Part shown: positions 11,041 to 15,401 of the stretch, piece after piece
Layout of the letters: each line of letters opens with the position of its first letter
Numbering within the stretch: position 1 is the first letter of the stretch
IMG/VR virus record: IMGVR_UViG_3300020045_002076
Span: 1 to 33,134 of that record
Origin: a virus
Taxonomy: Duplodnaviria; Caudoviricetes
DNA length: 33,134 nt
Direction: 5' to 3' (one strand)
Notes under the pieces: model-generated
Told to the model about the DNA's origin: nothing
The model's database searches: none
What the model saw: the letters and a program-made list of their open reading frames with translations, nothing else
Position numbers and translations under genes: made by a program

Positions 11041-12492
11041 TTAGCCCTCAAATTTGTAGTCAGCGAATGGGTCAGCGTTAGCTTCGCCAGCAGCCCGGTT
11101 AGCATTCAGACCGAAAGCCGGTTGTTTCTGATTAGCAATCAGGCCGCGCAATGCAACGATACCGCATTCTTTTGCGGCTTCTTCTGGTAACAGTTTGGCG
11201 TTAACCACTTGCTGAATTAGGCCGTCTTTTTCGGCTTGCTCTGAATTGGTTTTCATTGTTTGCATCATCTGATTGCACACATCTGTGCAGATTTTCTTCA
11301 TAGATTCTTCCAGTTGTGATGCGTTTACCGCGAGGGCATCCGCAATCATTTTTTCGGCTTCTTGTTTTTCCACTTGTTCGCCCTCACGGCTGTTATTCAT
11401 AGGTATTTCGGACTGTTCGTCCTGTCCTGTTGATTTTACCACACTTTTCACTATGTCAACAATCTTGCCGATTACACCGCCAAAAACATAGTTTCGCTGT
11501 GTCTCAACCTTCTTGATATCGCCTACAAATTCAATTTCTCCGTTTGTGATTGCATATTTTACGCTATACAATCCGAAGCGAGTGTAGAATATCGCCGTGT
11601 CTTCGTTGTAGTCATCGATTTCGCAATAAACATCTTCATCGGTTTTTTCTGATAGAGAGCTAAATAAACAAGCGTCTTTGGCTGCATCCTCTAATTTGCG
11701 GCGAATCTTATTTGAGGATAACGAAAAATCCTCACCACTAGATAGATTGCAATACATCACCTCAACTTCTTGCTCACCATCTGCGTTCACGAAAATACCC
11801 ACACCTTGCTCTGGTGTTGCCGCGCCGATTTCGCCGACTAGAATGGCATCGTGGTTGAATGTGTCGATGTTGGCTTTGTATTCGTATTCTTGCCCGGCTG
11901 CGTTCGTTCCAAGCTCAGGTACGCGAGACAAGTAAACCCCGGTTGATGTATGAATTGGCTGCTTTTTGGCAATGGCATTCGCAACAATCTTGCCACGGGT
12001 GGAGTTTTGCAACGCTTCTGTCGGGATGTACTTATCAACCAGCCAGCTACCGTCTTGCGCTTGACCCGTTACTTTGTTGAATGCGCCGGATAAGCCGTGT
12101 TTGGCTTGACTCATCATGTCGTAGGCATCGGCAAAGCGACCATTAACGACTGGGTGACCCAATGTGACAGGAGTCATATTCAGCGTGTCGATGGTGCGCT
12201 TAACCTCATCAGCTGGGTACATAATGCCATTCATGACTATGTCTTTCGGCAAGGTCTTAGATGGCAGGACTGTAAACTCTACGCCTTCGATTGTCTCAGT
12301 GCGGATGGCGGAATTGTCAACCAGCGTGGAAATGTTAACCAACAACTGATTGCCAGTTGGTTCTTTCGCGTGTTTGATTTTGTTGATTTCATCTTCACGC
12401 GCTTGCGCATCTTCTTTTGTCGCAAAACTGCCGAGACGCTTTGTGCCATCTTTGCTGTATAGCTCGAATTTACCTTTGATTTTCTTAATCAT
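11041..12492 (-). CDS. Prohead protease / scaffold fusion (DUF2213-like)
   Basis: DIVMNGIMYP..E, P.TLGHP, STG and HDAIL..E.GA..P.QG.GIFVN motifs; helical C-terminal scaffold. Confidence 0.85.
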   Translation of the reverse strand: MIKKIKGKFELYSKDGTKRLGSFATKEDAQAREDEINKIKHAKEPTGNQLLVNISTLVDNSAIRTETIEGVEFTVLPSKTLPKDIVMNGIMYPADEVKRTIDTLNMTPVTLGHPVVNGRFADAYDMMSQAKHGLSGAFNKVTGQAQDGSWLVDKYIPTEALQNSTRGKIVANAIAKKQPIHTSTGVYLSRVPELGTNAAGQEYEYKANIDTFNHDAILVGEIGAATPEQGVGIFVNADGEQEVEVMYCNLSSGEDFSLSSNKIRRKLEDAAKDACLFSSLSEKTDEDVYCEIDDYNEDTAIFYTRFGLYSVKYAITNGEIEFVGDIKKVETQRNYVFGGVIGKIVDIVKSVVKSTGQDEQSEIPMNNSREGEQVEKQEAEKMIADALAVNASQLEESMKKICTDVCNQMMQTMKTNSEQAEKDGLIQQVVNAKLLPEEAAKECGIVALRGLIANQKQPAFGLNANRAAGEANADPFADYKFEG

Positions 12493-13169: not shown

Positions 13170-13274
13170 TAAAAGGTCAGCTTGCTATCTGTGTGGAAGT
13201 GGGCTCTCAAATAAACCCAACAGATTAAACAAGCTGACCTTTTACCATTTGAGATTTTGTAATGGCTTCCACAC
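13170..13274 (-). ncRNA. Structured leader / CI-c4-like riboregulator upstream of terB
   Basis: 15-bp perfect inverted repeat 13170-13184/13230-13244; bulge and loop sequences complementary to 13266-13274 and 13247-13254. Confidence 0.6.
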
Positions 13275-13337: not shown

Positions 13338-13365
13338 AAGAAAAAGCCAGTGATTAGCTGGCTTT
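13338..13365 (-). terminator. Terminator after acb2
   Basis: Minus strand AAAGCCAG-CTAATCA-CTGGCTTTTTCTTT. Confidence 0.75.
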
Positions 13366-13437
13366 ATTGTTAAATCTTCCATTAGGTAGCTGGTAGTCAA
13401 AGAGTCCAGCTCTCGCTGCATCGATTTAACTTGTTAC

Positions 13438-13662
13438 TTAAAATGTGGTTGGCTGCGCAATTGATCTAACCGCTGCCATGAAACCTTTCTGTAAATCTTC
13501 TTTTGCAATGGAAACCCAACGCTGGTCCAACTTATCGTTTTGCTCTAACTCTTCAATCAAAATGCCAACGCGAGACGCCTCTGCCTTAACTGCATTCATT
13601 GCATCAATTTCAGCCTGGCTCAGATCGCGATATCCACTAATTTTCTTATGTTGATTATCCAT
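13438..13662 (-). CDS. acb2: Acb2-family anti-CBASS cyclic nucleotide sponge
   Basis: MDNQHKKI.GYRDLSQ.EID.MN.VK N-terminus and RW..IAK.D.Q.G.MA..R.IAQP..F C-terminus closely match Pseudomonas phage Acb2 as recalled; AAGAGG RBS. Confidence 0.92.
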   Translation of the reverse strand: MDNQHKKISGYRDLSQAEIDAMNAVKAEASRVGILIEELEQNDKLDQRWVSIAKEDLQKGFMAAVRSIAQPTTF

Positions 13663-13689
13663 TTAATCATCCTCTTAACTAATTTTGTG

Positions 13690-14115
13690 ATAACAGCGCC
13701 GTACATATGCAGAGGGCGCTGTCTAATTTGGAGCGAGTGGTCAGCGTTTGATAATTTATATAGCCATGCCGACAGATTACAGCTCTTACACTTACGTTAT
13801 CAGTTGGTAACTCTTTACGCGGCTCGGCCGGCAACCTTATTACAGGAAGAGAACTCCACATTTCTGTGTTCTGGTTGAGTTTTTAACTAATCAAGGTTTT
13901 GCACGCCAACAGATTAGAGCTCTTGCCCATTCGCTACGCTTCACAGCGTTGCTATGGTTGAAAGCCTAGCGGTAGCGACAAGGTTAGGCTTTCTTTGTTG
14001 TGGGCTCGAACCACCTACATTAACTCTGCACCAAGCTTGCAACGGAATCGAACTGTTTGAGTTTATGCTTCACCAATTTAACACAACTGTTGTTGTGATT
14101 ACCTTCCCAGATATC
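13690..14115 (-). ncRNA. Putative large structured ncRNA with tRNA-like elements
   Basis: No credible ORF; two T-loops (GTTCGATTC, GGTTCGAGCC), D-loop-like AATTGGTG, GNRA-capped hairpins, 23-nt imperfect repeat, acceptor-like end CCACTCGCTCCA; promoter at 14124-14156. Confidence 0.6.
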
Positions 14116-14131
14116 CGCAACAATTTAATTA

Positions 14132-14350
14132 TTACACAACTTCGTTATCTTTGCAAGCCACAAATTCAACTCCACACCGAACATAATCAAAAACAGCATG
14201 ACATTTAACGCCAGCCATAAGCACCGTGCGCTGTTCTGTGTACTCAATGAAGTTCTCTATGCCGTAACTACTTGCAATCGTGCAGGCGCATCGCAGGAGG
14301 TCGTCACCGCTATCCTGATGCATCTGGTCTTTAGTGAGTTGAATGAACAT
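14132..14350 (-). CDS. Hypothetical protein (72 aa)
   Basis: ATG with GGGA RBS and TGGTAAAAT promoter at 14380-14388. Confidence 0.6.
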   Translation of the reverse strand: MFIQLTKDQMHQDSGDDLLRCACTIASSYGIENFIEYTEQRTVLMAGVKCHAVFDYVRCGVEFVACKDNEVV

Positions 14351-14474: not shown

Positions 14475-14600
14475 ACAACAATATACATAAATACTCTCTT
14501 ATAGAGATTATAATCTTTATATTATTTATATATAGAGATAAAAAAAGACAGCTATCTGCTGTCTTTTAGGTTTTTTAAAATATTAACTTATGAACTTTTT
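14475..14600. other. AT-rich origin-like region A with hairpin
   Basis: TATATATAGAG, A-run + AAAAGACAGC-TATCT-GCTGTCTTTT hairpin, AAATATTAA; same layout as region B after primase. Confidence 0.45.
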
Positions 14601-14732: not shown

Positions 14733-15401
14733 TTACGCTAGTTCGTACCTTGTGTGCTCCGCCTTTGTCTTTCCATGTATGACAACGTTTAACTTGATGG
14801 TGCCATCAGTAAGAAGTTTGCTTATTGCTGCATCTGTGTCTAGATCGCTTATGTCTAGCTTCTTTGATTTGCAGCACTGTCTTATCACAGATGGTGGCGT
14901 TGGTTTTTTCTTTTTGGTAAGTATTGATATGACTCTTTCAACTGTAACGATGTCTTTGCTTTTCTTGGTCGCTTCGTTTTTTTCACCTGGAGTTTTCACG
15001 TCTTCACAAACTGCTTTGTATGCGATCATCTCTGGTGTTGATTTTATTGAAACAAGAATGTCTCCATCTTTTCCTATTGTAGGTATTTTTGTTGTTCTGA
15101 TGAAGTTAACACCTGCGTCATTAAAAATGTTCATGCAGTCATATATGGTAATCCCATTAAAATACTCTGTTGGCCCGTTTGGTTCGCACAACAACGTAGC
15201 AGACGTTAGCAATTCTCTCTCCATGTCGCTATGCAATGGAATGACATCTGTAAAAATTATGTCAACAATATCAACACAAAACTTTCTTGCTGAGCTTCTA
15301 TGTTCACCCAGTCTCTTTATTATATTTACGCTTTTCCCTATTTTTACCGTTCCATTATTGAACTCTATTGCATAGCAGTAACCAAAATCATGCTCTTTCA
15401 T
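14733..15401 (-). CDS. GIY-YIG-like (T5orf172/Mug113-type) nuclease domain fused to primase-like C-terminal domain
   Basis: GYCYAI...VKIGKS.N..KRL.EH...E.EL...EYF N-terminal motif; last ~68 aa align with the primase C-terminus. Confidence 0.75.
   Translation of the reverse strand: MKEHDFGYCYAIEFNNGTVKIGKSVNIIKRLGEHRSSARKFCVDIVDIIFTDVIPLHSDMERELLTSATLLCEPNGPTEYFNGITIYDCMNIFNDAGVNFIRTTKIPTIGKDGDILVSIKSTPEMIAYKAVCEDVKTPGEKNEATKKSKDIVTVERVISILTKKKKPTPPSVIRQCCKSKKLDISDLDTDAAISKLLTDGTIKLNVVIHGKTKAEHTRYELA

Follow-up and report, generated by a model that had tools for sequence, protein, structure and literature searches.

A variable tRNA-site island in a tailed-phage record holds two undescribed structured RNAs, one related to a candidate PRTase toxin/RNA antitoxin locus of plasmids

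In the window (the whole stretch of 33,134 nt that was analysed), the non-coding region bordered by a 72-aa ORF and a gene of the acb2/Tad1 family is a variable tRNA/ncRNA island. It consists of a series of RNA modules, each gained or lost independently of the others, and carries the scar of a deleted tRNA gene. It holds two undescribed structured RNAs, modules F and G, both with covarying stems. Module G is an orphan copy of an RNA that on plasmids is linked to a solo phosphoribosyltransferase (PRTase) gene, and it exposes a candidate PRTase toxin/RNA antitoxin system together with candidate decoys in phages. These two best-supported structures were missed by the earlier note on this DNA, which had proposed a single, partly tRNA-like RNA of ~430 nt transcribed into acb2.

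Setting and modular composition of the island

The window is a tailed-phage record with terminase, portal, tape measure and primase by PHROGs and a completeness of 71%. The 483-aa protein encoded at 11041-12492 has its closest named relatives (55-59%) in the Aeromonas phages 4_L372X and phiA005, both of which carry tRNAs directly upstream of the gene for its counterpart. Five syntenic loci were fetched via the upstream 72-aa ORF and compared with the window (Table 1). In three of them the island contains intact tRNA genes, for Tyr and Ser in L096, Met and Gly in L098 and Asn in L100, in the manner of phage tRNA clusters and morons, whereas the window has non-tRNA modules only at this place.

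Table 1. Features of the island and its borders
Feature	Position	Strand	Relatives with feature (of 5)	Remarks
72-aa ORF, no known function	14132..14350	-	5	no PHROG; 85-94% identity in the syntenic relatives; fixed upstream anchor of island
Sigma-70-like promoter (predicted)	14128..14156	-		9/12, TG extension; overlaps end of the 72-aa ORF
Module A, GGGA-capped hairpin	14090..14122	-	1	L098
Module B, D-arm-like stem and two T-loop hairpins	13997..14085	-	1	L100 only, 93% identical copy
Module C, 9-bp hairpin, 16-nt loop	13960..13993	-	4	stem constant, loop variable
Module D, GUGA-capped hairpin	13927..13957	-	5	
Module E, partial second copy of the G 5' half, with linker	13885..13926	-		repeat, 77% over 35 nt
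Module F, covarying three-way junction with 5' stem	13806..13884	-	1	no Rfam match; common to unrelated phage families
Module G, H-type pseudoknot	13739..13786	-	3	orphan copy, matching the 5' domain of the plasmid sRNA behind a solo PRTase gene
tRNA-Gly(TCC) 3' tail, gene deleted	13729..13740	-	2	identical to the intact gene end in L098; L097 shares the junction
Module I, 3' boundary hairpin	13694..13722	-	5	no U tract
acb2/Tad1-family gene, 74 aa	13438..13662	-	0	separate indel between short AGTTAA repeats
Intrinsic terminator-like site	13343..13365	-		first downstream of island

Contigs from sequencing runs likewise skip whole modules. A joint of 13788-13927, by which modules E and F are lost together, was found in wastewater contigs of five of eight runs (X1, X16, X9, X17 and X13), the A-B region is skipped by joints in the wastewater runs X1 and X20, and loose ends at 13741 in X1, X17, X19 and X13 continue into tRNA-Gly-like sequence. 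Contigs from RNA libraries cover parts of the island as well; they show neither transcript ends nor strand and are thus no evidence of expression.

The earlier note had read the region as one RNA closed by a long-range pair with a tRNA-Gly-like acceptor end, which would act as a decoy of anticodon nucleases or modulate CBASS together with Acb2. That the region is non-coding, tRNA-associated and structured on the minus strand is borne out, and the local motifs named are all present there, namely the D-arm-like stem and T-loop hairpin (14041-14057) of the mini-tRNA-like unit, the second T-loop hairpin (14000-14014), the hairpin at 13960-13993 and the GUGA-capped and GAAA-capped stems. The segments 13927-13935 and 13732-13740 are indeed complementary, but their pairing is not conserved in the five syntenic relatives, as the first side sits in the local hairpin D, kept in all of them, and the 13729-13740 tail is missing from three. 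Since this tail is identical to the end of the tRNA-Gly(TCC) gene in L098, the supposed acceptor end is a deletion scar, and the closing acceptor helix that a tRNA mimic would have is not conserved together with the body. The 441-nt region folds no better than shuffles, with z-scores of -1.50 on the minus and -1.33 on the plus strand, and its parts are independent of each other in the five relatives.

What speaks for one ~430-nt tRNA mimic are the T-loop and D-loop-like motifs in module B and the stretch between the island and acb2, which has no terminator-like site. However, module B has no anticodon loop and occurs in a single relative, and the independence of the modules, the tRNA scar in place of a closing helix, the module-skipping joints and the failure of the region to match, in blastn and nhmmer, any of the 80 acb2 loci that are nearest among 346 found leave a single RNA in partnership with CBASS unsupported. 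We regard this reading as very improbable and as largely refuted for the region as a unit; module B alone might still serve as a tRNA-elbow decoy.

The strand, which the earlier note had left open because three stems contain mismatches on the minus strand, is settled for minus: relatives mend the mismatches of the window there (the T-arm of module B, with its first T-stem repaired, in L100, hairpin D in L096, and P1 of module G), and the tRNAs in the homologous loci lie on the same strand.

Neither an ARAGORN gene nor an Rfam family at gathering score was found in the window, and none of the three sub-threshold Rfam matches near the region is credible. Rfam gave no family for any module in the window and the homologous loci, by gathering score or by E-value, and with the covariance models of Rfam 15 the region fits no known riboswitch, ribozyme, GOLLD or ROOL. 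ARAGORN and Rfam detected no cloverleaf and no tmRNA; the ARAGORN result at relaxed score carries no weight, since known tRNAs at other loci went undetected as well. Module B did not score in either program and is neither tRNA nor tmRNA. As described in the accessible part of PMC5737381, GOLLD and ROOL are also structured ncRNAs near tRNAs in phages without assigned function; each of them is one large RNA, whereas the island consists of small independent modules.

Beyond the syntenic relatives, module B gave three BLAST matches in named phages, which is the chance level, and a search of viral_contigs with module D returned nothing outside its own lineage. Regarding a bacterial partner, modules C, D and F had chance-level plasmid matches only, and modules B-F had none in E. 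coli genomes. Other tRNA-shaped units occur at comparable places. In L097 (3230-3335) such a unit with a long closing stem and no Rfam match stands in place of module B, and units of similar shape stand at the start of the islands in other Aeromonas phages and in enterobacterial phages (L103, L124-L127). Two further loci (L101 800-1050, L102 5170-5290) show a long stem under a tRNA-like domain that is variable and contains one or two T-loop hairpins, a plan that resembles module B.

The TTGCAA that had been claimed as part of a promoter is present at 14151-14156 within the sigma-70-like site (14156-14128), and L096-L098 have similar sequence at this place. Such sites are fewer in the region than expected by chance (five found vs 10.2 in shuffles), and the site by itself is therefore no evidence of a promoter. 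Upstream of the island ORF, a bidirectional terminator-like hairpin (14543-14567) is kept in L087. A 222-aa protein adjoining the island (14733-15401) has weak GIY-YIG/T5orf172 matches and could be a mobile nuclease or a regulator.

Covariation of modules F and G

Module F was detected by BLAST in unannotated gaps of the tRNA clusters of Aeromonas and Citrobacter phages (Straboviridae and Demerecviridae), and further searches added copies in Cronobacter and Klebsiella phages, Kunmingvirus and other small Aeromonas phages. Some of these further copies sit in non-coding islands for which no tRNAs are annotated, and the copy in L129 lies inside an annotated hypothetical ORF. Module F recurs in islands of both T4-like and T5-like phages and in those of small Aeromonas phages. 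In genome_contigs it matched two short contigs of one MAG, one of them with 13 tRNAs, which are probably phage DNA. A pattern scan yielded three true homologues among ten loci, six being copies of one coding sequence, and L095, which scored 26.9 bits with the F model, was kept out of the alignment.

RNAalifold on 21 sequences gave a three-way junction with compensatory change in nine of 13 pairs. With an added 5' stem, which is poorly aligned (63%), 86.2% of the cells are paired compared to 71.2% in shuffles (0/500) and 30-52% in slid controls; further pair types were not above shuffles (418/500), and the shuffle controls, here as for module G, ignore the relatedness of the sequences. The compensated pairs are kept in the copy of the window too. 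Module F is a real RNA motif, without an Rfam family for the window or for the homologous loci. Likenesses to words of the purine, FMN, ykkC and glycine riboswitches or to twister and hairpin ribozymes had no Rfam support and were dropped.

Additional elements were noticed around some copies of module F. An extra hairpin motif without Rfam match lies downstream of it in tRNA-cluster gaps, twice in L093 and once in L003. A sub-threshold match to the type III hammerhead (L095 1537-1583, minus strand) adjoins the weak F-like stretch of that locus on its upstream side, and in the Klebsiella T4-like phage of L129 a second, weaker match to the F model (1017-1127, 32.3 bits) lies just upstream of the main copy.

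For module G, the pattern scan found the stem in five of 32 loci, the three relatives and two divergent copies, and the 27 loci without stem were left out. In the two divergent copies the sequence of P2 is changed yet complementary. Over 13 distinct pair patterns from 16 sequences, anchored by the analyst and with relatedness uncontrolled, 63 of 65 cells are paired in P2, with up to five pair types per column (shuffle mean 39.9, reached by 0/2000), and 75 of 78 in P1 (1/2000 shuffles). The pseudoknot is compact; some of its unpaired residues are invariant, and its loop 3 is A-rich.

The G copy of the window agrees with the plasmid RNAs of Enterobacter, Serratia and Yersinia in 33-34 of 47 positions (~70%) and has a G-A mismatch in P1. 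In the window and its three relatives with G, the 48-nt pseudoknot only is present, without the 3' domain that is conserved in bacteria and large phages. The region could be a decaying tRNA cluster, in which the modules, formerly functional in another context, are passengers or processing/stability signals and the truncated G is inactive, and the tRNA-Gly remnant, the partial duplicate E, the mismatches of B, D and G without counterpart in relatives and the loss of the 3' domain would all fit. Yet the 48-nt boundary of G stays constant in the three relatives (92-96% identity) amid differing neighbours, and the F copy of the window retains its compensated pairs. We consider decay unlikely.

A PRTase-sRNA locus on plasmids and orphan copies in phages

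When a divergent G copy was used as query, nine plasmid records out of 397 records matched with at least 80% coverage; the other 388 had short partial matches (25 nt at E 0.9 among the matches listed). In the five of the nine that were fetched, the RNA lies behind a solo gene for ~246 aa annotated as phosphoribosyltransferase or hypothetical. A search with the PRTase protein gave 31 plasmid records, of which the nine closest (at least 54% identity) are the same nine records. In these records the RNA lies ~70-115 nt downstream of the PRTase gene. Ten of the 22 distant loci, with 28-33% protein identity and from Gamma-, Beta- and Alphaproteobacteria, were fetched by protein alone, and the pseudoknot is present in seven of them, six included in the model and one (L178) held out and scoring 52.9 bits. 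The remaining three (L171, L174 and L179) gave no score with the model and by eye carry a variant RNA that shares words of the 3' domain. The linkage to one candidate toxin gene that an RNA antitoxin in the broad sense would have is thus found in all nine close loci and in the distant loci, three of them with the variant. In Shewanella, Vibrio and Acinetobacter loci it is the 5' domain of the RNA that is variant.

By eye, the plasmid RNA is flanked by promoter-like and terminator-like sites of its own, giving ~180 nt, so that the plasmid loci (L164-L168, L170-L179) consist of two parts, a solo PRTase and a ~180-nt sRNA that matches no Rfam family. This candidate two-part locus, found in three proteobacterial classes, looks like a pair of protein toxin and RNA antitoxin.

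Alternatively, G and its bacterial homologue could be small-molecule aptamers or RNA cofactors of a non-toxic PRTase, with the phage copy binding a nucleotide metabolite or signal. The compact pseudoknot with its invariant unpaired residues and A-rich loop 3, which we take to resemble H-type pseudoknots such as preQ1-I, SAM-II and NAD+-II-like, is in line with this, as are a partner enzyme that handles nucleotides and a nucleotide-sponge gene adjoining in the window and 2.5 kb off in L029. However, Rfam on 11 PRTase loci and the window returned no riboswitch family, even by E-value, and the RNA follows the gene on its 3' side, has a separate promoter-like site and is not a leader. An aptamer or cofactor seems quite unlikely to us.

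The PRTase itself matches ShosT of PADLOC weakly and partially (E 4e-8 to 7e-4), has a weak Pribosyltran match and carries an invariant DD (D211-D212) in a PRPP-loop-like motif. At an E-value of 1e-10 or better the protein has at least 80 clusters, and no solved structure was matched by sequence. With ShosTA (PMC11961720, as far as accessible), in which ShosT is a PRTase toxin in phage defence, it shares the PRTase fold and the DD of the PRPP loop. The full ShosT combines a hydrolase with a PRTase and is paired with the protein antitoxin ShosA, in contrast to the partial profile match found here. The annotations of the fetched loci (L170 is without annotation) show no ShosA-like neighbour and no other protein antitoxin gene beside the solo PRTase; the conserved sRNA follows instead.

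Further phage copies of G were recovered by the model without having been part of it. The copies in L029, a 354-kb phage, and L003 scored 36.4 and 34.5 bits, and three weak ones (L001, L131 and L105) 18-21 bits. All five lie in tRNA clusters with stems changed but paired, and the 3' domain is present in several of them. A profile of 26 PRTase sequences found no PRTase in four near-complete phage records that carry the RNA (98%, 100% and 98% complete, and the complete Akh-2 record), whereas the plasmid control gave E 6.5e-57. These phages thus have the RNA without a cognate PRTase, as a phage antitoxin mimic would. The profile found none in the record of the window either, which at 71% completeness is no proof of absence. 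Exact peptide patterns of the PRTase gave a single, not meaningful 20-residue match in viral_contigs. The ESM Atlas lists related proteins of 267 aa in a cluster of 295 members, 45% of them viral, and some phages may therefore encode a PRTase-related partner protein.

Proposed decoy role of module G and relation to acb2

From sequence and analogy we give about an even chance to module G being a decoy antitoxin RNA, one that binds a predicted PRTase toxin of the host and thereby silences it. One transcript would run from the promoter-like site at 14128-14156 through acb2 to the terminator-like site at 13343-13365 and would be cut into separate RNA units; as no terminator-like site precedes the one behind acb2, co-transcription with this gene is plausible. 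The PRTase would be toxic in the way of ShosT, which phage shut-off releases and whose toxicity is abolished in the DD mutant (PMC11961720). The bacterial sRNA, with an architecture analogous to the pseudoknots of type III antitoxins, would be its unstable antitoxin and would be lost when the phage shuts off host transcription. The phage copy may then stand in for it, by analogy with pseudo-ToxI of phage PhiTE, which is a precedent for a toxin-less antitoxin copy in a phage (PMC3475682, seen in part). Modules B, C, D and F would be further cargo. Against a decoy stand the lack of module G in two of the five relatives, the missing 3' domain and the P1 mismatch of the window, the weak and partial match to ShosT, and the chance-level or absent bacterial matches of B, C, D and F. 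In the pseudo-ToxI study, moreover, over-expression of one repeat failed to neutralise ToxN. The anti-defence role suggested in the earlier note is thus plausible by way of module G, but it had been assigned to the wrong unit and, with anticodon nucleases and CBASS, to the wrong mechanism.

Pseudo-ToxI, which acts against ToxIN, is the closest parallel in being a toxin-less phage copy of a bacterial pseudoknot RNA found beside a toxin gene (PMC3475682, in its accessible part). The partner of pseudo-ToxI is the RNase ToxN, whereas that of the module G RNA has a PRTase fold, and ToxI consists of tandem repeats upstream of the toxin, whereas the plasmid sRNA is single-copy and downstream. Unlike pseudo-ToxI, module G sits among tRNAs in several unrelated phage families, with the decoy role predicted.

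With TenpI and CptI, as given in the available parts of PMC13682666, PMC12283969 and PMC3401426, module G has in common that it is an H-type pseudoknot of ~50 nt in which an A-rich loop runs along stem 1. With P1 and P2 covarying, it fits the form of the ~35-55 nt H-type pseudoknots of type III antitoxins. However, the PRTase locus has neither the tandem array nor the layout of a terminator followed by the toxin, and it lies by a different protein than the ToxN/CptN/TenpN endoribonucleases. An assignment of G to TenpI was rejected, as the tenpI repeats in the published supplements accessible to us show another consensus (PMC12283969, PMC3401426).

Neither motif and no solo PRTase with a downstream pseudoknot sRNA appeared in the open-access literature searched (abstracts, and the available parts of PMC5737381 and bioRxiv 10.64898/2026.09.22.753630). 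The readable tables of a viral candidate RNA catalogue (Fremin 2023, PMC10690425) contain no match to the F and G motifs or to contig ids, and F or G may still figure elsewhere in this catalogue without function. The PRTase is a toxin fold that we did not find described for RNA antitoxins, and phages of T4-like, T5-like, jumbo and small types carry toxin-less copies of the plasmid sRNA in their tRNA clusters. Should these copies be decoys, mimicry of antitoxin RNAs would be widespread and no longer restricted to one case selected in the laboratory. Some of the non-coding DNA in phage tRNA clusters that now lacks an explanation would gain a function, and module F and other orphan RNAs of phages could be baits for new defence systems. 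A broader version, in which gaps of phage tRNA clusters would be decoy libraries that exchange RNAs against protein-RNA defences, G disarming the new PRTase/RNA system and F, C-D and B leading to further RNA-controlled defences, is tentative and somewhat doubtful.

The acb2/Tad1-family gene behind the island encodes a protein matching Pfam PF24729 (E 2.3e-19, 69.8 bits vs a cut-off of 27) and p26 in the PDB (8h2j, E 5.4e-17), with ~19 central residues of p26 missing. It is followed by terB and a tciB-like gene, and acb2 with terB/tciB resembles insertable, moron-like cargo. The partnership between the RNA and acb2 that the earlier note had claimed does not hold, as acb2 is missing here in all five relatives, in addition to the lack of matches at the 80 nearest acb2 loci; a joint of 13427-13686 in run X1 skips the gene. 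Among 55 of these 80 loci none scored with the module F model, and the G model gave L029 as the sole credible match. The link between island and acb2 is a shared location and not a conserved partnership, and nothing but adjacency to this separately inserted gene connects the RNA with CBASS.

Two observations concern the sequence downstream of the island. A perfect 15-bp inverted repeat upstream of terB (13170-13244) is kept in L087. In run X1, a short contig that matches just past the stop of acb2 (behind 13440) runs on into other sequence, which we take to be CRISPR-repeat-like; the contig may presumably hold a spacer against this phage and hence a possible hint at its host.
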